From an uncultured Candidatus Saccharibacteria bacterium (GTDB lineage: Bacteria; Patescibacteriota; Minisyncoccia; Phycocordibacterales; UBA9973): a stretch of DNA of 50,903 nt. Position numbers and translations under genes: made by a program. Position 1 is the stretch's first letter. Every line of letters starts with the position of its first letter. The stretch lies in NCBI GenBank assembly GCA_964522195.1, contig CAZFSV010000006.1:1408-52310 (forward strand). The letters run 5' to 3'. The notes below the pieces were generated by a model. That model worked only from the letters and a program-made list of their open reading frames with translations. It was not told the DNA's origin and did no database searches. Below are positions 40,197 through 50,891 of this stretch, piece by piece.

Positions 40197-40369
40197 TTTT
40201 CTTAAAATTAAAAAAGAGTTAACTATATTATTTAGTTTGACTCTTTTTATTTTGTAGATATGTGTAGATAATCTATCAATCTCCACTAATAGGACATTTA
40301 ACTTTTTTGACTTTAGGATATTAAAGTAATAGTATAAAAATGAAATATATTCTTTAAATCAAGTAAAAA

Positions 40370-40714
40370 ATGAAAATGAAAATTTTAGTTTCGATTAAAG
40401 CTCTTTCGGGTTTCTTGAACGCATCTGAGATAATGTTGCGTTCCTTGCAATTAGTCTCTGCAGACAGTAAAAGTAGAGTTATGCATATAGGTATGCTGGT
40501 AGAAATAGAAAAAGAAGCAAACCTATCTGTAATCTCTACAAAATCAAACAAAAAACAAGCAACAATTAAGATTGAAATCAAAGGTATTAAAAAAGAAGAA
40601 AACAAAGATTTGATTATTAATCAAATAAAACAAACAATTCAAAGAATCTGTGACGTTGAGCAAACAACAGTTAGCCTAAGAGTAGAAAGACTTATGATTC
40701 AAAAAAAATTTTAA
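40370..40714 (+). CDS. hypothetical protein
   Basis: 114-aa ORF. Preferred over the antisense ORF 40354..40605 because a strong terminator (40731-40758) follows it. Confidence 0.4.
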   Translation: MKMKILVSIKALSGFLNASEIMLRSLQLVSADSKSRVMHIGMLVEIEKEANLSVISTKSNKKQATIKIEIKGIKKEENKDLIINQIKQTIQRICDVEQTTVSLRVERLMIQKKF

Positions 40715-40730
40715 TCTTATTTTTAAAATT

Positions 40731-40758
40731 AAAAAACCTACGTACGTAGGTTTTTTTT
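40731..40758. terminator. strong palindromic terminator at the proposed island boundary
   Basis: AAAAAACCTACG/CGTAGGTTTTTTTT, a perfect palindrome. Confidence 0.75.
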
Positions 40759-40818
40759 ATTTAAGTATTTTGTGAGCCTAATCGAGATGCGACCCAAGGA
40801 TTCCTTACCCTGTAAGGA

Positions 40819-40992
40819 TTATTTTAACCTTTCCTTGTTCTTAGATCGACCCTTATCGAGAGTAGCTTTCTTTGTGTATAAGTGAGGATTTTGCTTCCTG
40901 TCTTGATCTAGTAACCATTGAAAGACAGCAACAACTCTATCTGTTTCTTCTTTAGTCCAATTTTTAGGATTTTTCTTATCTTCTATGTTCAT
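40819..40992 (-). CDS. hypothetical small basic protein, last gene of the TIR operon
   Basis: 57 aa from the ATG at 40992 (64 aa from 41013): MNIEDKKNPKNWTKEETDRVVAVFQWLLDQD... A tandem AAAGTGACA x2 lies just upstream. Confidence 0.35.
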   Translation of the reverse strand: MNIEDKKNPKNWTKEETDRVVAVFQWLLDQDRKQNPHLYTKKATLDKGRSKNKERLK

Positions 40993-41053
40993 AAAAAGTG
41001 ACAAAAGTGACACAATATAGACAATGTAAAGTTGCAGTTATATGTAACTATTT

Positions 41054-41734
41054 TTACTTTTCTTCAATACCTGATTCTTTTCGATCTGTTTTAGGTAGAC
41101 CCAAAACAAGCTCATGCATTTTCTCTCTATATTTAATTAAATGATTATTAACAGCCAAAAGGTCTGTCTTCAATTCTTCAAATTTCGGGTAAGATTCTTG
41201 AATGGTTTGCGGATCAGTTTCTTGATCTTTTTTTAACTCTTTTTCATACCAATATCTGAATCGAGCCTGCCAAGAGGTTAGATGTGGTCGCAGTCCCTTA
41301 TTAAGAACGTCAATCGAAAGACTAATAACTTTTTGAGTGCTGTTATTTTTTACCTTACTCACAGGGATATCTTTAATCAGCTCTCTAGTGATTGAGAAAA
41401 AATTATGCCATGAATCATAAATCTCATAAATGACATCATGCTTTAGATCAATAGGTATTCCAATTTTTCTTGTGCTTAGTTCCACCCAAATTTTATAGGC
41501 GATTTGTTGATCTTCTCGATTGGGCTTGAAAGATATTTTACCTGATCCGAAACCCATTTCAGCGTTGTCTATCTCAAAGTTGTCTCCACGAAAAGTCCCA
41601 AGATATTTTTTTATAGCTATTCCAATAAGAACCAAAGCAACGCCAATTACTACAAAAACGTAGTTGAATTGAAAAGAAAAATTATAGTCTTTTGTCAGTG
41701 ATATTGAAATGAGTGTTGTTAAAGTATTTTCCAT
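41054..41734 (-). CDS. single-pass membrane protein with ~170-aa helical cytoplasmic domain of unknown family (candidate effector)
   Basis: 226 aa from the ATG at 41734, which lies 4 nt after the TIR gene stop. TM helix VFVVIGVALVLIGIAI. The remainder (KIWVELSTRKIGIPIDL...WQARFRYWYEKEL) matches no family I recognise. Confidence 0.6.
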   Translation of the reverse strand: MENTLTTLISISLTKDYNFSFQFNYVFVVIGVALVLIGIAIKKYLGTFRGDNFEIDNAEMGFGSGKISFKPNREDQQIAYKIWVELSTRKIGIPIDLKHDVIYEIYDSWHNFFSITRELIKDIPVSKVKNNSTQKVISLSIDVLNKGLRPHLTSWQARFRYWYEKELKKDQETDPQTIQESYPKFEELKTDLLAVNNHLIKYREKMHELVLGLPKTDRKESGIEEK

Positions 41735-41738
41735 GGAA

Positions 41739-42311
41739 TTAAGGTAGGTTATTAGAATACTGAGGGTCAGAGTTATCAATGAGTTCTTTGTGGGTCACGC
41801 GACGCTCGTAGGCTTTATGTATCGCATCACCAATATGGACTTCATTAAGAGGATAATTACACTTCCAAAAATATACTTCCGCAAAACCAGATTTTAAACT
41901 TTTAACTGTTCGAGGGTGCAAACGAGGATACAGTAGTTCCTGCTTGTATACACCATTTTCAAAAGGATTTATTGGGAATGTTGGAAGTATTATTACTACT
42001 AAGCCAGAGTGTCCTCCAACTTTTTTATTTAGACCAGCTGATATCTCCCAATCAACATGTTTTCTTTTATGGGTATTCGCTCCATAAAGTGCAATAACAA
42101 CACTTGCATCTGAAATATAATCATCAGCAATAAGACGAGCTGTATAATCAGTACTATTGTCTGGATCTATATCTCCAATCTGAACTGCTTTAGAAATGAA
42201 ATGCTCCCCAAATTGTGTTTCAAATTCGTCTCTATGAGATTCGTCGTCATGATGAAAACTAATAAAGGCTTTGTGCTTAGTATTTGGTTGTGAACCGAAA
42301 GAAGTATCCAT
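41739..42311 (-). CDS. ThsB-like TIR (DUF1863-type) domain protein
   Basis: 190 aa. The beta-A strand KAFISFHHDDES, ASVVIALYG, then KHVDWEISAGL (the conserved W-E of TIR-like/ThsB families), then GLVVIILP. The start lies 2 nt after the DUF2188 stop, with a GAGGA box upstream. Confidence 0.7.
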   Translation of the reverse strand: MDTSFGSQPNTKHKAFISFHHDDESHRDEFETQFGEHFISKAVQIGDIDPDNSTDYTARLIADDYISDASVVIALYGANTHKRKHVDWEISAGLNKKVGGHSGLVVIILPTFPINPFENGVYKQELLYPRLHPRTVKSLKSGFAEVYFWKCNYPLNEVHIGDAIHKAYERRVTHKELIDNSDPQYSNNLP

Positions 42312-42313
42312 AG

Positions 42314-42541
42314 TTATCCTCGTGGCGGGAAAGGATCATTACCGTAGCTATTACGTTCTTGAATTTTTCCATCTTTACCGTGAATAAAATGTTCAACCTT
42401 TGCTTTTTCAGCAATATTTTCTGCTCTATTGAGAGCATTCTCTTTTGTGTGATGTGAAGAAAGTGGAGTAGAAGATTTTTCTGCTTTATTTTCCCACATG
42501 TGACGATCTGAATTGAAAACTGTATGTATATTTTTTGCCAT
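42314..42541 (-). CDS. DUF2188 domain protein
   Basis: 75 aa from the ATG at 42541: MAKNIHTVF..DRHMWENK......SSHHTKENALNRAENIAEKAKVEHFIHGKDGKIQERNSYGNDPFPPRG, the typical DUF2188 pattern. Confidence 0.7.
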   Translation of the reverse strand: MAKNIHTVFNSDRHMWENKAEKSSTPLSSHHTKENALNRAENIAEKAKVEHFIHGKDGKIQERNSYGNDPFPPRG

Positions 42542-42548
42542 ATGTTTT

Positions 42549-43166
42549 TTAGTATAGATCTGCTGGAAGTACCGCAACAACTACCCCTTGGATCATGCAA
42601 TTATCTGTTAATATAATAGGCTTGTGATTTTTGTTCTTCGACTTTGGTCGGAGGATAACAGCATCACGAGTCTTTTCAAAAACCTTTACCGTCGCTTCAT
42701 CGTTGATGAGTGCAACAACTTTTTCTCCGTTCTCTGCTGAATCTTGTTGTCTTATGAGGAGCAAATCACCACTGTTGATTCCTGCTTCGTCCATAGAATC
42801 GCCTGATGCTCGAAGTAGAAAATATGTTGAACCCTTTTTTGCCATTCGTGTTGATATGGAAATGTAGGTTTGTATATTTTCTTCTGCGAAGATAGGAGTT
42901 CCGCACGCAACGGCACCAACGAGGGGTACCTCTATTGTACTTACAGAACTTTCATTGTATGTGTTCGCAAGTATAAGATTTCTACCGCTTTTTTTTATAA
43001 GACCAGATTCTACAAGTCGGTCGATCACCAAACTTGCGGATCTTGGAGATTTGCCCCCTGTGACTTCGTTAATTTCACGGAGGGTAGGGCTTTCACCATA
43101 ATGGATAATCTTGTTACGGATAAGAGCAAAAGCTTTCTTGTCTTTGTCACTAAGGTTATTGGTCAT
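42549..43166 (-). CDS. LexA/CI-type self-cleaving repressor (wHTH + S24 peptidase)
   Basis: 205 aa from the ATG at 43166. LexA-type N-terminal wHTH (GESPTLREINEVTGGKSPRSASLVIDRLVESGLIKK), a scissile-site region VGAVACGTP, Ser in GDSM and Lys in ATVKVF. Confidence 0.85.
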   Translation of the reverse strand: MTNNLSDKDKKAFALIRNKIIHYGESPTLREINEVTGGKSPRSASLVIDRLVESGLIKKSGRNLILANTYNESSVSTIEVPLVGAVACGTPIFAEENIQTYISISTRMAKKGSTYFLLRASGDSMDEAGINSGDLLLIRQQDSAENGEKVVALINDEATVKVFEKTRDAVILRPKSKNKNHKPIILTDNCMIQGVVVAVLPADLY

Positions 43167-43167
43167 G

Positions 43168-43198
43168 GTATAAATAGTATACAAAACCCTATACAAAA
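43168..43198. promoter_or_regulatory. candidate operator array in the repressor/Cro-position divergent region
   Basis: TATACAAAA occurs twice (43178-43186 and 43190-43198, 12-nt register). An inverted GTATA lies at 43168-43172 and a GTATAC palindrome at 43177-43182. Confidence 0.35.
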
Positions 43199-43282
43199 AA
43201 GCAAGTATCTGCTATGCTTATCTTGTGGGTATTCCACCTGCAAAATAGGGTCGAATTTATTAATCAATAAAAAGCATTAGCT

Positions 43283-43525
43283 ATGTTTAAAGTTAAAGAT
43301 ATTGTTTATTGTGATGGATGTAAGATTCCTGTTCCTCTTGCTAGACGTACAAGTACTGGTGAAATGGAGCTCATTAAATTTTTTAATGGGAAAAAATCAG
43401 AAATAAAAGTTTCCTATCAAAGTGGTAGCTCGTTCACTATAACTTGTACACAATGTGGTATGGGGCATATATTTTTACACATCGAAGAATCAATATCTTT
43501 AAACGAAAAAATTTCTCTCGCCTAA
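43283..43525 (+). CDS. small Zn-ribbon protein, divergent from the repressor (Cro-position gene)
   Basis: 80 aa with CDGC and CTQC pairs. A long hairpin terminator follows. Confidence 0.5.
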   Translation: MFKVKDIVYCDGCKIPVPLARRTSTGEMELIKFFNGKKSEIKVSYQSGSSFTITCTQCGMGHIFLHIEESISLNEKISLA

Positions 43526-43572
43526 TCTTGAGAAATAATCAGGTTGCAACAATTTAATCGAGCATCGTCTGG

Positions 43573-43626
43573 AACGCCCAGACATCTATCTAACGAAAGT
43601 TGGATATGTGTCTGAGCGTTTTTTTA
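43573..43626 (+). terminator. long hairpin terminator after the Zn-ribbon ORF
   Basis: AACGCCCAGACA ... TGTCTGAGCGTT (one mismatch) followed by TTTTTTT. Confidence 0.6.
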
Positions 43627-43651
43627 TTTACTAATTTAAATTTGAATCTCT

Positions 43652-44944
43652 ATGAAAAAATTAATCTGGGTTACAACCCAAAAGAAAGTTAATGATCTGA
43701 TTCCACAAAATATTAACCCTCGAAAAATTTCTGACAAGCAAATGTCTGACCTTAAGCGCAGCTTAAAAAAATTTAATCTTGTCGAAATTCCTGCAGTAGA
43801 CTTTGATGGAAAAATACTCGCAGGACATCAACGTATCCGAGCGTTGCAACTACTTGATCGTGGTGATGATTTAATAGATATCCGTACACCTAACCGTAAA
43901 CTTACTGAACAGGAATCAAAAGAGTATTTAATTGGTTCCAATAAGCTTGGGGGCGACTGGGATTATGATCTACTAAAATCATTCGACATTGAAACGCTTT
44001 CTTTTGCAGGATTTGATGATATTGAACTTGCAAAATTCTGGGATACAGACAAGGAAATTAAGGAAGATTCATTCGATGTAGAAAAAGAATTAAAGAAAAT
44101 TGTTGATCCAAAAACAAAACTTGGTGACATTATTACCTTAGGTAACCACCGAGTTATTTGTGGAGACTCAACTAAACAAGAAACACTCTCACGACTACTT
44201 CGAAATGAGCGTGCATCCATGATCTATTCAGACCCCGTATACAATCTGGAGATTGACTATGATGGTGGTATCGGTGGAAATCAAAATTATGGAGGAAATG
44301 TTAAAGATTCTCGAACATTTGATGAATATAAAACATTTATTCGTGAAAGTCTTGATTGTGCGCTTGCTGTATCAAATCCTAATACTCATGTCTTTTATTG
44401 GTGTGATCAAATTTATATTGGTCTTATTCAAGATGTTTACCGCTCCTTTGGGATCAGTAATAAACGTGTTTGCTTATGGCTTAAAAATAATCAAAACCCT
44501 GTACCAAAAGTAGCATTTAACAAGGTCTATGAACCTGTCGTATATGGTGTGCGTGGCAAACCCTATCTTGCCAAAGCAATTACAAATCTTAACGAAGTAA
44601 TGAATAAAGAATTGAGTACTGGTAACAATCTTATAGATGAGGTAAATAGCTTTATTGATATTTGGACTGCAAAGAGATTAGCATCAAAAGACTATCAACA
44701 TGCAACTTCTAAACCAATTACACTTCATGAGAAAGCAATTAAACGCTGTACAAAGCCAGGCGAGATTATTCTAGACAGTTTTCTAGGTTCAGGGAGCACT
44801 CTACTAGCAGGAGAACAATTGGGTCGAAAAGTATATGGCTGTGAACTTGAACCTCGCTTCTGCGACTTGATCATCAAACGATACGAAACCATGACAGGTA
44901 ACAAGGTAAAAATTGAACACTATGAAGAAAAATTTACAAAATAA
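43652..44944 (+). CDS. ParB-like nuclease domain fused to a beta-class N6/N4 DNA methyltransferase
   Basis: N-terminal ParBc-like region (NPRKISDKQMSDLKRSLKKFNLVEIPAV...GHQRIRAL). Methyltransferase motif IV variant IYSDPVYN and motif I DSFLGSGSTLLAGEQLGRKVYGCELEP at the C-terminus. Confidence 0.85.
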   Translation: MKKLIWVTTQKKVNDLIPQNINPRKISDKQMSDLKRSLKKFNLVEIPAVDFDGKILAGHQRIRALQLLDRGDDLIDIRTPNRKLTEQESKEYLIGSNKLGGDWDYDLLKSFDIETLSFAGFDDIELAKFWDTDKEIKEDSFDVEKELKKIVDPKTKLGDIITLGNHRVICGDSTKQETLSRLLRNERASMIYSDPVYNLEIDYDGGIGGNQNYGGNVKDSRTFDEYKTFIRESLDCALAVSNPNTHVFYWCDQIYIGLIQDVYRSFGISNKRVCLWLKNNQNPVPKVAFNKVYEPVVYGVRGKPYLAKAITNLNEVMNKELSTGNNLIDEVNSFIDIWTAKRLASKDYQHATSKPITLHEKAIKRCTKPGEIILDSFLGSGSTLLAGEQLGRKVYGCELEPRFCDLIIKRYETMTGNKVKIEHYEEKFTK

Positions 44945-45272
44945 ACTTCTTGAGGAATTAGAGAAAGTACCTATTATCCAAGTTGCTTGTGAAAAAACAG
45001 GTATTTCTCGGAATACATTCTATAAATGGAAGAATTCTGACAAAAATTTATCAGAGGAAATAGAGGCTTCAATAGAAAAAGGGGTTGAGTTTATGAATGA
45101 TGTGGGCGAAAGTCAGCTTTTAACAATGGTAAAAGAGAAAAACTATTTTGCTATAAGTTTTTGGCTTAAACATCGTCATCCAAAATATAGACCAGATAAA
45201 GTAAAACTAGAAGAATTAAAGAAGAAAGAAGGACTATTTGATCTATTAAAACGAGGATTAAACATAAAGTAG
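44922..45272 (+). CDS. HTH protein resembling phage small terminase / phBC6A51-type regulators
   Basis: 116 aa from the ATG at 44922, overlapping the MTase end by 23 nt. HTH segment IIQVACEKTGISRNTFYKWKNSD. Weak call. Confidence 0.45.
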   Translation: MKKNLQNKLLEELEKVPIIQVACEKTGISRNTFYKWKNSDKNLSEEIEASIEKGVEFMNDVGESQLLTMVKEKNYFAISFWLKHRHPKYRPDKVKLEELKKKEGLFDLLKRGLNIK

Positions 45273-45410
45273 CATTTCAAAATAAAGTTTTTTGTTTTGA
45301 ATTATTTTTATGTACTCTCTTTGACTCAATTTTTTTTGGAATATTAATCCAAATAATCACCAGAAAATAGTTGTTCTTTTTAGAAAAGGTTTTTCTAAAA
45401 TATTTGATGA

Positions 45411-46037
45411 CTATTTTATAGAAGCTAGAACAACACATGTTGTTTCCCCTCCATTTTTTGTGCTTTCAGATTTTAGAAATTCACAAAGCTTGGTGCTATC
45501 AAAGTTTTGCCAATTAATTTTTTGATAGGTTGTTTTATCTATTGCCTGTGATATCAATAACTTATTTTCTTTATTACCGTACTGATCAGTTATGTCTGCG
45601 AAATACCACACAATGACATCATACACATTTGGATTTGAAGCAAATGTTTCTTGTAATATTTTTCCTGTTAATTCTCCAGTATTTTTATATAATGCACTTG
45701 CATTGTAGTAGTCTAAAATATTTAAACTAACTGTAATCATTCTAGAACCTTCTGGTCGATTACTATCTGCCTTAACATCTTCAATAGATTTATATGAAAT
45801 ATCTGTTGTATTAGTTTTTACTGCAAGAATTTTTATGCGATCTTCATATGTTTTCGGTTGAGTAGTTGCAACTTCTGTTGTTGAAGTAGTTTTTTGTGAT
45901 GTATCTGATCCACCAAGCATACTTCCTATCATTATTACAAAAAATATAATTATTACCCCTGTTAAAATTGGATGTTTTTTAATCCACTCCTTATTTTTAT
46001 TTATACTATTTGCATCTGACGACATGTCTAATTTCAT
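45411..46037 (-). CDS. membrane-anchored extracytoplasmic protein, unknown function
   Basis: 208 aa with an N-terminal TM helix (ILTGVIIIFFVIMIGSML), a Thr/Ser linker and a globular domain. Confidence 0.5.
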   Translation of the reverse strand: MKLDMSSDANSINKNKEWIKKHPILTGVIIIFFVIMIGSMLGGSDTSQKTTSTTEVATTQPKTYEDRIKILAVKTNTTDISYKSIEDVKADSNRPEGSRMITVSLNILDYYNASALYKNTGELTGKILQETFASNPNVYDVIVWYFADITDQYGNKENKLLISQAIDKTTYQKINWQNFDSTKLCEFLKSESTKNGGETTCVVLASIK

Positions 46038-46138
46038 AAATTTTTCTTTTGCGTATTAGTTTTAATTCTAGGGTAAGACGCAAAAAGCCTACCACTAGGT
46101 AGAGTCTTTCGACTCATATATCCGTTTCCAGATATAAC

Positions 46139-46186
46139 GCAACGAGCGACCCTAGTGATAGGTTCTTTATGCTCGTTGCGATTTTT
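46139..46186 (+). terminator. terminator-like hairpin closing a structured intergenic segment
   Basis: Perfect 9-bp stem GCAACGAGC/GCTCGTTGC with a nested CCTA/TAGG pair, followed by GATTTTT. Confidence 0.4.
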
Positions 46187-46310
46187 CACCATGCCACCCG
46201 ATTTCTCAAATGGTTTAGGCTACTGCTTTATTTAGTTGTAAATGAATAATAGCATTTTCGACCCTATTATTCAACGGACATTCTATCGCAGAACCTTAAA
46301 ATCACAGAGG

Positions 46311-46332
46311 AAGTTACCAACAAGTTACCAAC
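46311..46332 (+). repeat. perfect tandem 11-mer AAGTTACCAAC x2 upstream of the serine recombinase
   Basis: Read directly at 46311-46321 and 46322-46332. An (AT)7 run at 46371-46384 overlaps the ATG. Confidence 0.8.
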
Positions 46333-46382
46333 GATTGGGGGCTTAGCAAAAGAGCTAATCTGCCTCATTAATATATATATAT

Positions 46383-47663
46383 ATGACAGAAGTTGAACAA
46401 AGCCAAATGAAGTATTGCTTATACGCTCGTAAATCAACCGAAGCAGAAGAAAAACAAGCACTTTCAATTGATTCTCAAATCAAAGAAATGAAACAGATTG
46501 CCGAGCGTGAAAATCTAACTATAGTTGAAATTCGCAAGGAATCACACTCTGCAAAGGAATCTGGGCAAAGACCAGTATTTGAGGAAATTGTAAAAGACAT
46601 TGATACAGGGATATTTAATGGAATTATTACATGGGCACCCGATAGACTTTCTCGTAATGCTGGTGACCTTGGAAAACTTGTAGACAGAATGGATCAAAAG
46701 AAATTGATTACGATTAAAACTTTTGGTCAGACTTTTTCTAATTCGCCAAGTGATAAGTTCCTGCTAATGATCCTTTGTAGTCAGGCAAAGCTTGAAAACG
46801 ATAATAAAAGTATCAACGTAAAGCGTGGTATGAGAGCGAGATGTGAAATGGGATTATGGCCAGTACAACCACCAACAGGATATAGAAAGCCTAATCAACG
46901 ATTAGCTAAGTGTGAGGTAGAAATAGATCCGGAACGAGCCGATACCATCAGACAAATATTTGAGAAGATTAGTTATGAAAAATGGAGTGTATCAAAAGTA
47001 CACGCATGGCTACGATATGATCTTAATTTTAAAACTCACAGAGGTTTTCACTTAAGTCTAGGAAATGTATTTAAGATTATAAATAATACTTTCTATTATG
47101 GTCGCTTTGAGTTTCCGCAAGGATCAGGTATTTGGTATGAGGGAAAACACAAACCTATCATCTCGAAAGAGCTGTTTGATGAGACAAGAAACTCTATCAA
47201 GTCGCAGACGATAAAATCACAAGGAAAAGAGTTTGCTTTTACCCGAATTATGAAATGTGGAGCTTGCGGATCTGGTATTACTGCTGATGAAAAGTTCAAG
47301 AAACTTCTAAATGGCGGAGTGAACCGACATGTCTATTATCGATGTACAAAAGCAAAAGATAGGAATTGTAAAAATCCTGCACTGAATGAAACTGAACTTA
47401 TCGAATCACTACTCGATATGGTTGATACTTTGAACATAAACAAGGTTAAACTCACCGCAAAGCTTGATGTTGAGATTCAAAAGTTTAAGAAGTTACAAGC
47501 AATGTTTTTGGGAAAGAAAAAGACAGAGAAAATAGAGCCAATTGATCTCAAGGATTACACAAAATTTGTACTAAAAGAAGGATCTCCGTTAGAACAGAGA
47601 TCTATCTTGGAATGTATCAGTAGTGAATTGGTTTTGAAGAATAAGATAATTAAATTGCTGTAA
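46383..47663 (+). CDS. large serine recombinase (resolvase catalytic domain + recombinase domain + Zn ribbon + coiled coil)
   Basis: YCLYARKSTEAEEKQALSIDSQ contains the catalytic Ser. Also DRLSRN, a recombinase domain, and a Zn ribbon CGACGS...YYRC. The start may instead be the ATG at 46407. Confidence 0.9.
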   Translation: MTEVEQSQMKYCLYARKSTEAEEKQALSIDSQIKEMKQIAERENLTIVEIRKESHSAKESGQRPVFEEIVKDIDTGIFNGIITWAPDRLSRNAGDLGKLVDRMDQKKLITIKTFGQTFSNSPSDKFLLMILCSQAKLENDNKSINVKRGMRARCEMGLWPVQPPTGYRKPNQRLAKCEVEIDPERADTIRQIFEKISYEKWSVSKVHAWLRYDLNFKTHRGFHLSLGNVFKIINNTFYYGRFEFPQGSGIWYEGKHKPIISKELFDETRNSIKSQTIKSQGKEFAFTRIMKCGACGSGITADEKFKKLLNGGVNRHVYYRCTKAKDRNCKNPALNETELIESLLDMVDTLNINKVKLTAKLDVEIQKFKKLQAMFLGKKKTEKIEPIDLKDYTKFVLKEGSPLEQRSILECISSELVLKNKIIKLL

Positions 47664-47667
47664 ATCA

Positions 47668-48444
47668 CTACGGCAAAATATCTTTTAAGTGATCAGCAAA
47701 CAGATCTCTAATTTTTAGATAATATTTCTTATTTTCAAGACTATTTATGACATCATCTGGCATAAGAGTGCACAAAGAAAAAATATCTTGGTAACTAAGA
47801 TAATTAGGAGCTGTAAATGCTAACTCGACCTCATCCATTGAGATATTTTCAATTAAATCATCATCAGAACCTTCTCCATTTTCTACATACTCTTTGATTT
47901 CAAAAGATTTATTCGCCACAAAACTATCCAACTCTTTTAAGAGTGCCCCCTCATATAAATTTGCAATCAGAGCAACAACTTCATTGTATTCATTAATTTT
48001 AGAATAAAACTGGTCTTCATTTATTTTGGTATATGTAGCGTGTCCTAAGTTTTGATTTCTAAAATCAACAATAGTTTTAGCTTTTTTAATAACTTCTACA
48101 GAGTTTTCATATAGATTTAAGAAATTTATAGAACTTCTTTCTTTTAAGTCTTTATGAGAAAAAGCTGTTGGGCTATTTGCTATTTCTAGTTTTTGAACAA
48201 GATCTCCTCCTAAATGAATTAGTGAGGTCTTAAAGTCTTCTGTCTTCCACAGTTTTGTTTTATACAAAACTTGGTTTACGTAACACATAAAAAGCAAGTG
48301 ATACGTAATCAATGCTGATCTATAAGAACCAGATTCAATTTGGTCGAAAAAATCTTGCTGTAATTCAACTATGTAATCCTGCTCAATTTGAGAATTGTAT
48401 TTTAGAGATAAATAGCCAGGAAGATTCCATCGAAATTCATCCAT
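47668..48444 (-). CDS. HEPN-like (DUF4145/Abi-type) protein co-transcribed with the M-S methyltransferase
   Basis: 258 aa, starting 2 nt after the hsdMS stop. All-helical N-domain with an R-x5-H motif (FRNQNLGH, DNA 48040-48060) and an acidic C-terminal half. Family call made by eye. Confidence 0.45.
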   Translation of the reverse strand: MDEFRWNLPGYLSLKYNSQIEQDYIVELQQDFFDQIESGSYRSALITYHLLFMCYVNQVLYKTKLWKTEDFKTSLIHLGGDLVQKLEIANSPTAFSHKDLKERSSINFLNLYENSVEVIKKAKTIVDFRNQNLGHATYTKINEDQFYSKINEYNEVVALIANLYEGALLKELDSFVANKSFEIKEYVENGEGSDDDLIENISMDEVELAFTAPNYLSYQDIFSLCTLMPDDVINSLENKKYYLKIRDLFADHLKDILP

Positions 48445-48446
48445 GG

Positions 48447-50891
48447 TTAAATTTCAGATAAAACTTTCTCTATCTTTTTCTCCATCATTTTAATAAGTTC
48501 TTTATTTGATAAAATGACTTCATTTTCAATTTTTATCTGATCAGAAAAACTGTTTTGAATTTCTTTAGGTACAGACGGAATTTGAATTTTAGATACATAG
48601 TCAAAACTTACTCGAGGTAACTGTGCGCCTTTTAGACCTTTTAACACCTCCTCATTGAAGTCGTTACTTCTTAATATTAATTCATAGAATTCTGGTGAAT
48701 ATTCAGGTTTGGTAGTTAACACCAATATATCTGTAGAACAAATTCCATCTATATTGGCGAGCCAAACCTTATTCAAATTTGGTCGTAATTTTCCATATAA
48801 CACATCTCCTTTTTTAAATACATTCTTTATACTTTTTATAGATTTTATGTCTGTATTAACTTCTCCAACCAAATTACCTGAGTTCGATTCTATGTTTTCA
48901 AGTCCAACATAAGAAATTACCCCTGTTTGATTCTGAGGATTGATCTGTTCTTTTCTTAAAGTAAATATTTCTCCAAGTTCGGTCATAGTAATATTCTCTA
49001 ACTTCTTAAGTGACTGACCAAAATATCGTCTCTCTCTCTCTAGATTTTCGATGACTTGTTTTGCTCCCTCAATGGCTTTTTGTTTAACTTCAATTTGTTC
49101 AACGATTTCTTTTTGAACATCAAGAGGAGGGAGTGGGATTTCTAAATTCCTTATTGAGGTTGAGTTTATACTTGCTTGATTTACAGCTTTTTGCGCAAAT
49201 CTTCTTGCGTTTTCAATAAAATCTTTTGTTTTTAAAATACTGATAGCGTATTCAGGTATTATCTTACTTTTGTCTGGTCTTAGTCTTATGAGATTTGAAC
49301 CATGTACAACCTTTTCATTTATATTCATAAATATCGCAGTTTTTGCCAAATGTTCAATACTGTTTATATGACTAAAAAGAATATCTCCTTCGACAAGGAA
49401 GTCGTTTTCACTAACTTCATCATTTGTATATTTAGTTTTATTGAGGTCAACTGTACCGTCAGCTATAGTCTGAATTCTTGATACTTTGTACTTACCAACC
49501 TGATCAAACTGATCTACATTTTTACCGTTTTTAATTTCTATGAAAATATCTTCCAATTTAACTGATGGATATTTTTCGTTTCTGACTTCAACGGTTCTGT
49601 ATCTATCCGCAGAAAGATTATAGTCTCCGGTTTCAGAAATTTTTTCTTTTGAAACAGTAAATCCTTTTCCTGATCCATTGACAAATGACTCTATCGTTTC
49701 TTGATTTTCTCCATTTCGAACATATTCTCTAAATCCTTTCAAAATAACTCCCGCATCTCCGAGATCATCTTTTTCAATCTTTCGTCGCTGTGCACCAAGG
49801 TCATATCCATCACTAGTTACTTTTACAAATAACAAATCCTTTGTTTTCTTCGCTACTTCGTTATCAAAAAATAGAATACTGGTTTTTACTCCTGAATATG
49901 GATTAAATACTCCGGCAGGGAGCGATACTACAGCAAAGAGTCCGTCATTCACAAGATTCTTACGGAGTTCTTTGTATGCTTTTCCTGATTGGAAAATAAT
50001 ACCCTCTGGAACAATAATACCTGCTCGTCCTTTTGGTTTCAAGTGATTCATTATGTAGTCCACAAAAAGAACTTCCGCACGGTTTGCTTGAACACTGAAT
50101 TTATTATGCGGTTTTATACCTCCTTTTGGAGACATAAATGGAGGGTTCGCCAGAATAAGATCAAACTTGTCGTTCCAACGATCTTCACTCGCAAGCGTAT
50201 TGTAGTTGTAGATTTTTGGAGTAGTAAACTTGTGCAAATACATGTTCACCTGTGACATACGAACCATGGTTGGATCAACATCGTATCCTTCAAAGTTATT
50301 TACAAGTTTTCTGCGTTCGTCTGCTGTAAGCTGTCGCATTTTGCCAGTTTCTGGATCAACACCTTCGTTTTGTCTCTTGATATAGTTGTACGCACTAATC
50401 AAAAATCCAGCAGTACCACAAGCAGGGTCTAGGATAGTGTCGTCCTTGGTTGGTGCAAGAACATCAACAATAAAATCAATAATATGGCGAGGTGTGCGGA
50501 ATTGTCCCGCATCACCTTGTGATGACATGATTGAAAGAAGATACTCATATGCATTTCCGAGTTCCTCTGAATGAGTGTAATCAAAGTATGAAATCTCTTT
50601 TAGGAAAAGACCGAGAACTTCTGGATCTCGATATGGCAAAAATGCTTGTTTGAAAATATCTCTAAAAAGCTGTGGCAGTTGTTTTGCTTCTGAAAATTTC
50701 ATCAACGCTTCGGTATAGAGGTTCATTCGTTCTTGATTACCAAGACGAGAATCCATTACTTTTGTCCAAGCGTATTTTTCAAGATCTTTTACAAAGAAAG
50801 ATGGATCGCCACCAGCTTTGATAGCCTGCTGATCCATGTCGTCCATGAATTTGTAAATAAGAGCATTGGTAATTTGCTCCACTTGAGACAT
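48447..50891 (-). CDS. type I-like restriction-modification methyltransferase with fused specificity subunit (HsdM-HsdS)
   Basis: 814 aa. Motif I ILDPACGTAGFL and motif IV LANPPFMS (N6-adenine gamma class). The C-terminal ~385 aa carry two TRDs separated by the conserved helices LPPLDVQKEIVEQIE... and IPSVPKEIQNSFSDQIK... No HsdR lies within the window. Confidence 0.85.
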   Translation of the reverse strand: MSQVEQITNALIYKFMDDMDQQAIKAGGDPSFFVKDLEKYAWTKVMDSRLGNQERMNLYTEALMKFSEAKQLPQLFRDIFKQAFLPYRDPEVLGLFLKEISYFDYTHSEELGNAYEYLLSIMSSQGDAGQFRTPRHIIDFIVDVLAPTKDDTILDPACGTAGFLISAYNYIKRQNEGVDPETGKMRQLTADERRKLVNNFEGYDVDPTMVRMSQVNMYLHKFTTPKIYNYNTLASEDRWNDKFDLILANPPFMSPKGGIKPHNKFSVQANRAEVLFVDYIMNHLKPKGRAGIIVPEGIIFQSGKAYKELRKNLVNDGLFAVVSLPAGVFNPYSGVKTSILFFDNEVAKKTKDLLFVKVTSDGYDLGAQRRKIEKDDLGDAGVILKGFREYVRNGENQETIESFVNGSGKGFTVSKEKISETGDYNLSADRYRTVEVRNEKYPSVKLEDIFIEIKNGKNVDQFDQVGKYKVSRIQTIADGTVDLNKTKYTNDEVSENDFLVEGDILFSHINSIEHLAKTAIFMNINEKVVHGSNLIRLRPDKSKIIPEYAISILKTKDFIENARRFAQKAVNQASINSTSIRNLEIPLPPLDVQKEIVEQIEVKQKAIEGAKQVIENLERERRYFGQSLKKLENITMTELGEIFTLRKEQINPQNQTGVISYVGLENIESNSGNLVGEVNTDIKSIKSIKNVFKKGDVLYGKLRPNLNKVWLANIDGICSTDILVLTTKPEYSPEFYELILRSNDFNEEVLKGLKGAQLPRVSFDYVSKIQIPSVPKEIQNSFSDQIKIENEVILSNKELIKMMEKKIEKVLSEI

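Follow-up and report, generated by a model that had tools for sequence, protein, structure and literature searches.

Closest described systems and the locus under study

Thoeris types V to XI were defined by Yirmiya et al. in December 2025 (bioRxiv 10.64898/2025.12.03.692087). In type VI, a TIR protein is paired with ThsG, which is annotated as DUF6650 and sometimes carries transmembrane (TM) helices (bioRxiv 10.64898/2025.12.03.692087). Here we analyze a gene cluster in a 50,903-nt stretch of DNA (the window, meaning the whole stretch), which covers positions 1,408 to 52,310 of contig CAZFSV010000006.1 in assembly GCA_964522195.1 of an uncultured Candidatus Saccharibacteria bacterium. Two genes of the cluster, at 41054..42311, very probably constitute a two-gene type VI Thoeris system (ThsB and ThsG) carried as cargo of a prophage-like element, behind the repressor of that element. 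A TIR protein paired with a membrane protein is of a kind already described and experimentally verified by others. The novelty is modest and lies in the Patescibacteria host, in the size of the ThsG clade and its invisibility to family libraries, and in the repressor-linked slot that holds the cargo.

The closest verified system is the Ga0209396_1000232 pair (genes ..224 and ..225, annotated "DUF6650 and TM"), which defends Escherichia coli as a two-gene system with no DUF2188 (bioRxiv 10.64898/2025.12.03.692087). According to the same preprint, its TIR protein produces 2' cyclic ADP-ribose (2'cADPR) upon infection with SECphi18; the TIR protein alone suffices for this, and only on infection. 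Externally supplied 2'cADPR causes growth arrest and is toxic only in cells expressing type VI, and ThsG was modelled as a homo-hexameric ring with basic pockets. It was also reported there that one type V system failed to respond to the expected molecule. In a second preprint using the Ga0209396 system, ThsG is called membrane-spanning, and XopQ, a 2'cADPR-cleaving enzyme, abolishes the defense.

In the window, the region 40819-43166 contains five co-directional open reading frames (ORFs), all on the minus strand. In order of transcription, the features of this region are as follows.

42549..43166, minus strand: S24 repressor, 205 aa; first gene of the co-directional cluster
42314..42541, minus strand: DUF2188 protein, 75 aa; backbone gene, coupled to the repressor
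41739..42311, minus strand: thsB, ThsB-type TIR protein, 190 aa; candidate catalytic Glu89 in VDWEI
41054..41734, minus strand: thsG, predicted membrane effector, 226 aa; start 4 nt past the thsB stop codon
40993..41049, minus strand: conserved 57-nt motif; far edge of the cargo slot
40819..40992, minus strand: small ORF, 57 aa; backbone gene, downstream of the cargo slot

The gaps between successive genes are 7, 2, 4, and 61 nt, in agreement with the coordinates and the first three spacings of the original prediction, which had been made from the sequence alone. An independent public gene call on a Logan contig carrying the same locus (identical in the thsG gene and in window positions 40300-41100) returned the identical five genes.

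Assignment to type VI Thoeris

Scaffold Ga0209396_1000232 was recovered (L085; loci retrieved in this work are numbered with the prefix L), and its TIR protein was 100% identical to the sequence in Table S1 of the type VI preprint. The gene that follows it encodes a 214-aa protein showing 53% identity to the window ThsG over 210 aa (E, 4e-72), and the two ThsB proteins share 46% identity over 188 aa (E, 1e-57). In both systems thsB precedes thsG, the genes overlapping in Ga0209396 and being tightly coupled, with a 4-nt gap, in the window; both ThsG proteins have one TM helix and a helical domain, and the TIR glutamate is conserved. The two differ in their hosts, which belong to the Gammaproteobacteria and the Patescibacteria, respectively, and in their surroundings, given that the Ga0209396 pair has unrelated genes upstream whereas a prophage repressor and DUF2188 precede that of the window. 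The original prediction had stated that none of the known partners of bacterial TIR proteins was present. This does not hold, since the membrane protein, which shares 53% identity with the experimentally verified type VI effector, is a ThsG. Its proposal that the membrane protein, translationally coupled to the TIR gene, is the effector proved right by orthology, and the absence of a SIR2-SLOG or Macro ThsA stands, neither domain having been found beside the TIR gene. We are confident of the family assignment and less so of the exact signal, while the mechanism would carry over by orthology at 46 to 53% identity.

The window TIR protein matched Pfam ThsB_TIR (PF08937) at 1.8e-13 and contains the motifs KAFISFHH, VVIALYG, and VDWEI, the Glu of the last being residue 89. 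E89 is invariant across 28 TIR homologues, the ThsB of E. coli ACN001 among them, so the catalytic Glu is retained in the alignment. When the PDB was searched by phmmer with the window TIR protein alone, nothing was found, and a family profile was needed; this profile aligned to Bacillus cereus ThsB (PDB 6LHY and 9B7D, ∼5e-7) and also matched another TIR protein, 8WCF, at 1e-7. In the alignment of the profile to the PDB structures, E89 falls on the Glu of a VRYEI motif, which in B. cereus ThsB we take to be the catalytic E85. The predicted ThsB-type TIR protein, with its hallmark motifs and candidate catalytic Glu89, was in this way corroborated.

The membrane protein had been described as belonging to no assignable family, and scans of Pfam, PADLOC, PHROGs, and NCBIfam indeed gave no meaningful match. 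A Pfam scan of 30 aligned homologues at an E value of up to 10 produced no match, PF20355 (DUF6650) included; the family profile found nothing among PDB sequences, and tblastn against plasmids returned three distant matches, all annotated "hypothetical protein." A protein search with the window ThsG, for its part, returned 1362 clusters, and ThsG was present in 286 species-representative genomes. This very large clade escapes the copies of Pfam, PADLOC, NCBIfam, and PHROGs that were searched. The top matches (55 to 90% identical) came chiefly from metagenome-assembled genomes (MAGs) of Patescibacteria and from metagenomes; the full range covers Patescibacteria, Alpha- and Gammaproteobacteria (including Pseudomonas), Chlorobiaceae and Saprospiraceae MAGs, and one Altiarchaeales MAG.

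Hydrophobicity and the AlphaFold2 model bore out the predicted architecture of one TM helix plus a helical domain. The single hydrophobic segment spans residues 18-48, and in the monomer model residues 25-47 form a TM helix and residues 74-211 an all-helical domain; the mean predicted local distance difference test score (pLDDT) is 74, rising to 85-90 within the helical domain. In the alignment of 30 ThsG homologues, approximately 60 residues of the C-terminal domain are invariant, among them the basic and aromatic residues R89, K90, R117, R149, H151, W155, and R158. These invariant Arg, Lys, His, and Trp residues would be compatible with positively charged pockets, of which they are no proof. 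Other identities tried for the membrane protein were rejected, namely, a Macro-TM type II effector (there was no ThsA_Macro match, and the model is all-helical) and a holin or immunity protein, as was a toxin-antitoxin pair for the TIR and membrane proteins together.

Some further observations concern the ThsG family. Two homologues (P0010 and P0011) carry the precomputed match PF28423.1, an accession absent from the Pfam copy searched, which may be a newer Pfam entry for the family. On a Streptomyces cynarae plasmid (L082), a distant ThsG-like protein is preceded by a NUDIX hydrolase and directly followed by a 933-aa TIR-WD40 protein. A Calothrix plasmid (L081) encodes a distant ThsG-like protein lacking a TM segment, with no annotated TIR gene in the 6.4-kb locus.

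Pairing of the TIR and ThsG genes across genomes

Eighty loci centered on ThsG and another 80 centered on the TIR gene were fetched. By iterative search, a TIR gene was found in 75 of the 80 ThsG-centered loci, and ThsG was found in 60/80 of those centered on the TIR gene, a pairing far beyond chance and a positive answer to whether the two genes co-occur in other genomes. In about 60 ThsG loci a TIR gene is the immediate co-directional neighbor, lying upstream in 27, downstream in 27, and overlapping in 6. The TIR partners of ThsG fall into at least three clades with less than 40% mutual identity, and some ThsG loci contain two or three TIR genes. Such a combination of one ThsG with several kinds of ThsB fits the Thoeris-like pattern of many sensors feeding one effector.

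In the Alphaproteobacteria (L011, L013-L018, L020, L021, L024, and L044), two or three different TIR genes surround a single thsG. A TIR clade in this set shares 40 to 48% identity with TIR 1 of type III Thoeris as published, and its member in L044 is 53% identical to a type V ThsB. An Altiarchaeales archaeon MAG (L080, MTER01000017.1) carries thsB-thsG, with a ThsB 60% identical to that of Ga0209396, which suggests inter-domain transfer.

Relation to other Thoeris systems

A second verified system, that of E. coli ACN001/S1 (ThsG WP_000286099.1 and ThsB WP_000549632.1), was located at NZ_CP007442.1 865360..866708 (L083) with a back-translated TIR probe, used only as a search device. The pair, annotated merely as "hypothetical protein" and "TIR domain-containing protein," sits inside a P2-like prophage, between DinI and a portal remnant, and it occurs in 60 of 5426 complete E. 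coli genomes. It is homologous to the window system (24% identity for ThsG and 27% for ThsB) and likewise prophage-borne. In contrast to the window pair, the gene order is reversed, thsG preceding thsB; the ThsG of E. coli ACN001 contains two hydrophobic segments, not one, and its clade is far smaller, with 39 protein clusters compared to 1362. The E. coli ThsG scored 29 bits against the hidden Markov model of the window ThsG family, and hhalign joined the two families with a probability of 97% (E, 9.8e-11; 143 columns).

Type II Thoeris, the signal of which is His-ADPR, resembles the window pair in combining a TIR protein with a small membrane-anchored effector that senses an ADP-ribose (ADPR)-derived signal, and in sister elements L181 and L183 it is found as cargo of the same slot (see below). 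Its effector, however, has a Macro domain, whereas the window effector is all-helical and gave no match to ThsA_Macro (PF20016) in a search comparable to that in which the type II effectors of the sister elements matched it at 2.8e-54. As for type I, the SIR2-SLOG domain of its ThsA was not found in any gene between 38282 and 48444.

Defense cargo slot of a prophage-like element

Three members of the cluster, namely, the S24 repressor, DUF2188, and the 57-aa ORF, lie outside the Thoeris system and belong to the backbone shared by a family of prophage-like elements of Patescibacteria. The remaining features of the window element are as follows.

40731..40756, no strand: palindromic hairpin resembling a terminator, flanked on either side by T-runs; minus-strand transcript likely to end here
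43167..43282, no strand: divergent intergenic region; presumed promoter and operator
43283..47663, plus strand: remainder of the prophage-like element, except for the Sie-like gene, which is on the minus strand
within 43283..47663, plus strand: Cys-rich protein, 80 aa; opposite-strand gene of the element
43652..44944, plus strand: ParB-N6/N4 DNA methylase
44913..45272, plus strand: TerS-like HTH protein
45411..46037, minus strand: Sie-like membrane protein, 208 aa
46383..47663, plus strand: large serine recombinase

S24 together with DUF2188 was present in just 2 of the 80 ThsG-centered loci; among the TIR-centered loci, S24 was found in 0/80 and DUF2188 in 1/80, and conversely ThsG occurred in only 1 of 80 loci of DUF2188 homologues. 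DUF2188 travels instead with the repressor. In the loci of its close homologues (at least 73% identical, with upstream sequence available; n = 20), S24 was directly upstream on the same strand in 17. A divergent ParB-N6/N4 methylase gene was found in 16 related loci, often followed by a TerS-like gene, and the repertoire of the window element's close relatives includes a large terminase (phrog_38, 5.6e-78) together with a serine recombinase.

What follows DUF2188 varies. The cargo is a cyclic-oligonucleotide-based antiphage signaling system (CBASS) with a SMODS cyclase and Cap15 in L173 and L175-L178, type II Thoeris (TIR and ThsA_Macro, 2.8e-54) in L181 and L183, and a PARIS-like AAA_15/21 plus DUF4435 protein in L182. 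Type VI Thoeris is the cargo in the window, L005/L174, L165, and L169-L172, while in L167 the repressor is followed directly by thsB-thsG, with no DUF2188. The combination of DUF2188, TIR, and TM protein, proposed originally as an undescribed system, is thus resolved into a type VI Thoeris pair and a DUF2188 gene that accompanies S24 and precedes varied cargo.

On the other side of the cargo, a 57-nt motif has 35 invariant columns over 12 elements whose cargo is CBASS or Thoeris of type II or type VI. Its sequence in most relatives is AGTTACA-N6-TGTAACTTT ... GTGTCACTTTTGTCACTTTTT, that is, an inverted repeat AGTTACA-N6-TGTAACT and then GTGTCACTTTTGTCACTTTTT; the second arm in the window is TGCAACT. 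The motif could be a putative terminator, operator, or recombination site. No second copy of its 3' part (40992-41013) was found, this sequence occurring once in the window, and no tRNA genes were found beside the motif in 10 related loci. Copies of the 57-aa ORF, 82 to 89% identical, lie behind different cargo in L183, L167, L176, and L181, and the ORF was absent from the other ThsG- and TIR-centered loci. Consequently, it is a backbone gene, conserved whatever the cargo, and not a member of the defense operon in which it had been placed. Similarity at the DNA level to related elements does not extend past about 40768, just short of the hairpin at 40731..40756. The slot is thus bounded by S24 and DUF2188 on one side and by the 57-nt motif and the 57-aa ORF on the other, with swappable cargo in between.

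DUF2188 is 73 to 100% identical among close Patescibacteria homologues (L173-L195), and, in the comparison of the window with L173 and L174, it is 97 to 100% identical between elements whose S24 proteins are just 32% alike (L005); for L005/L174 and the window, identities are 72 to 73% for thsB and 64% for thsG. DUF2188 is therefore far better kept than the neighboring S24, thsB, and thsG, which indicates that the elements are mosaics. The protein matches PF09954 (6e-16), phrog_3220 (2e-20), and, over its full length, the PADLOC candidate defense family PDC-S16 (1.9e-25), and it is listed as an untested putative effector in the Thoeris preprint (bioRxiv 10.64898/2025.12.03.692087). Its association with defense would be explicable by its flanking a defense slot, and it need not be a defense protein itself.

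The slot offers a simple handle for finding defense genes in the uncultured, host-dependent Patescibacteria and in their phages. No description of it turned up in a literature search on Patescibacteria prophages and Thoeris. We tentatively suggest, as a possibility short of even odds, that it is an undescribed hotspot for the exchange of defense cassettes among temperate phages of Patescibacteria, with DUF2188 and/or the motif regulating or exchanging the cargo. If so, diverse abortive-infection systems would be tied to a prophage DNA-damage switch.

Homologues of the large serine recombinase of the window were found near thsB-thsG in Patescibacteria (L002, L004, L006, and L009), in Alphaproteobacteria (L040 and L060), and in L167; the pair is thus often borne by mobile elements with a recombinase.

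The repressor and its bearing on expression

The S24 protein contains Peptidase_S24 (1.2e-28) and LexA_DNA_bind domains and scores 145.8 bits against TIGR00498 (lexA), with a cutoff of 110.95. The whole protein aligned with E. coli LexA (2e-23), the Ser of GDSM and the Lys of VK being in place; at the cleavage position it has Cys-Gly, unlike E. coli LexA, which has Ala-Gly. UmuD is also cleaved at a Cys-Gly. The position of S24, divergent from the ParB-methylase and terminase genes, is kept in relatives, and this recurring place opposite phage genes speaks for its being the repressor of the element and not the LexA of the host.

The divergent region 43167..43282 contains a tandem duplication of TATACAAAA at 43178-43198, and an 18-nt repeat pair lies at 43203-43220 and 43272-43289. 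No known SOS box was identified in the region upstream of S24, although repeats are present. Terminator prediction on the minus strand gave no site from 43166 to 40819, and none before 40756. The tight spacing and the lack of a predicted terminator suggest co-transcription of the cluster with the repressor.

Gene order agrees with the proposal that the cassette lies directly behind a LexA/CI-type repressor, as rexA-rexB lies behind cI. Phage lambda cI-rexAB and the defense hotspots of P2 and P4 prophages are well-known cases for comparison. As in these, the defense module is co-directional with, and directly downstream of, the prophage repressor, with variable cargo between conserved flanks; the proteins are different, the phage family of the window infects Patescibacteria, and the likeness is read from gene order. 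Nor is the general idea of DNA-damage-linked defense new, as the CapH/CapP regulators tie CBASS and other systems to DNA damage (bioRxiv 10.1101/2022.04.27.489752). CapH/CapP operons likewise place a DNA-damage-cleavable repressor upstream of defense genes, and DUF2188 occurs in such operons (bioRxiv 10.1101/2022.04.27.489752). However, the CapH/CapP repressor lies divergent and is cleaved by a separate metallopeptidase, whereas the S24 protein of the window is of the self-cleaving type and co-directional with its cargo.

Proposed mechanism

By orthology with the Ga0209396 system, ThsB would sense phage infection and its TIR domain, through candidate catalytic Glu89, would convert NAD+ to 2'cADPR. 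This molecule would bind the cytoplasmic helical domain of ThsG, which is predicted to be anchored by its one TM helix and is probably assembled into a ring-shaped oligomer. Activated ThsG would arrest growth, probably by membrane damage, and stop the spread of the phage. Co-transcribed with the repressor, the pair would be expressed in the lysogenic state, as is the case for lambda cI-rexAB, and its level may, as originally proposed, change upon RecA-triggered cleavage of the repressor.

Alternative explanations and points against the assignment

That DUF2188, the TIR protein, and a novel membrane protein act together as a new system is the least probable of the alternatives and has next to no likelihood in our estimate. 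The lack of a match for the membrane protein in Pfam, PADLOC, PHROGs, NCBIfam, and the PDB would be in keeping with it, as would the standing of DUF2188 as PADLOC candidate PDC-S16 and as a putative effector in the Thoeris preprint. Nevertheless, a verified ThsG shares 53% identity with the membrane protein, and DUF2188, found in only 2/80 ThsG and 1/80 TIR loci, is missing from L167 and stands before cargo of other kinds as well (CBASS, type II Thoeris, and PARIS-like). A different possibility is that DUF2188 is an accessory of whatever defense system follows, for instance a regulator or small sensor connecting the cleavable repressor with the cargo, the functional unit being S24, DUF2188, and cargo. 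Its constant place directly before the cargo, its 73 to 100% identity in L173-L195 compared with 32% for S24 in L005, and its occurrence next to putative defense genes in operons headed by CapH/CapP speak for such a role; type VI Thoeris works in E. coli without DUF2188, L167 lacks it, and the mechanisms of the different cargoes differ, which makes a role as a specific partner unlikely. We regard the accessory role as unlikely overall, though it is the strongest of the alternatives.

Somewhat less likely still is the reading of S24 as the LexA of the host itself, in which case the cluster would be an SOS operon of the chromosome and not the immunity region of a prophage. The score above the NCBIfam lexA equivalog cutoff and the full-length LexA alignment with its Ser-Lys dyad are what such a protein would give. 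Against this, the divergent ParB-methylase is present in the window and in 16 related loci, several of them with TerS, TerL, or a serine recombinase nearby, S24 diverges to 32% identity while gene order holds, and the cargo varies between conserved flanks. The roles within the pair could also be exchanged, with the TIR protein as a toxic NAD+-depleting effector and the membrane protein as sensor or immunity factor, given that many bacterial TIR proteins (those of CBASS, Pycsar, and SPARTA) act as NADase effectors. We consider this highly improbable: 2'cADPR production by the orthologous TIR protein on its own depends on infection, added 2'cADPR harms no cells other than those expressing the system, the 2'cADPR-cleaving enzyme XopQ abolishes defense, and the presence of several ThsB clades per ThsG fits many sensors and one effector.

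Several points weigh against our own reading, that of a type VI Thoeris pair carried behind the repressor of a prophage-like element. By hmmscan, the window ThsG has no match to PF20355 (DUF6650). The verified E. coli ThsG also fails to match, and a precomputed PF20355.5 match was found for only one homologue of the E. coli clade; the missing match is therefore no evidence of exclusion, the model being insensitive for TM-bearing clades. Foldseek of the AlphaFold2 model against the PDB returned generic helical bundles only (best E, 0.34), and the window ThsG was modelled as a monomer, not as a ring. The pair is assigned by orthology, the biochemical and phage data being those of other systems, and at 46 to 53% identity its signal could differ from 2'cADPR. 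As regards expression, a promoter scan returned no more sites than did shuffled sequence, and internal promoters are possible. Finally, the window element is only ∼7 kb long, with no large terminase or structural genes. This copy is a remnant or a satellite-like derivative, and it may be a decayed remnant in which the regulation no longer works.

Neighboring genes and other observations

The Sie-like protein at 45411..46037, with weak PHROG matches to superinfection-exclusion families, occupies the position of the large terminase in relatives of the element. Beyond the serine recombinase, the region 47668..50891 (minus strand) encodes a 258-aa protein with no family match and an 814-aa N6_Mtase plus Methylase_S fusion, that is, a restriction-modification-type methylase with a specificity domain; this region may be a small defense island. 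The host is a member of the Patescibacteria, and its glutamate dehydrogenase shares 79 to 82% identity with the enzymes from MAGs that carry the labels Saccharibacteria and Paceibacterota.

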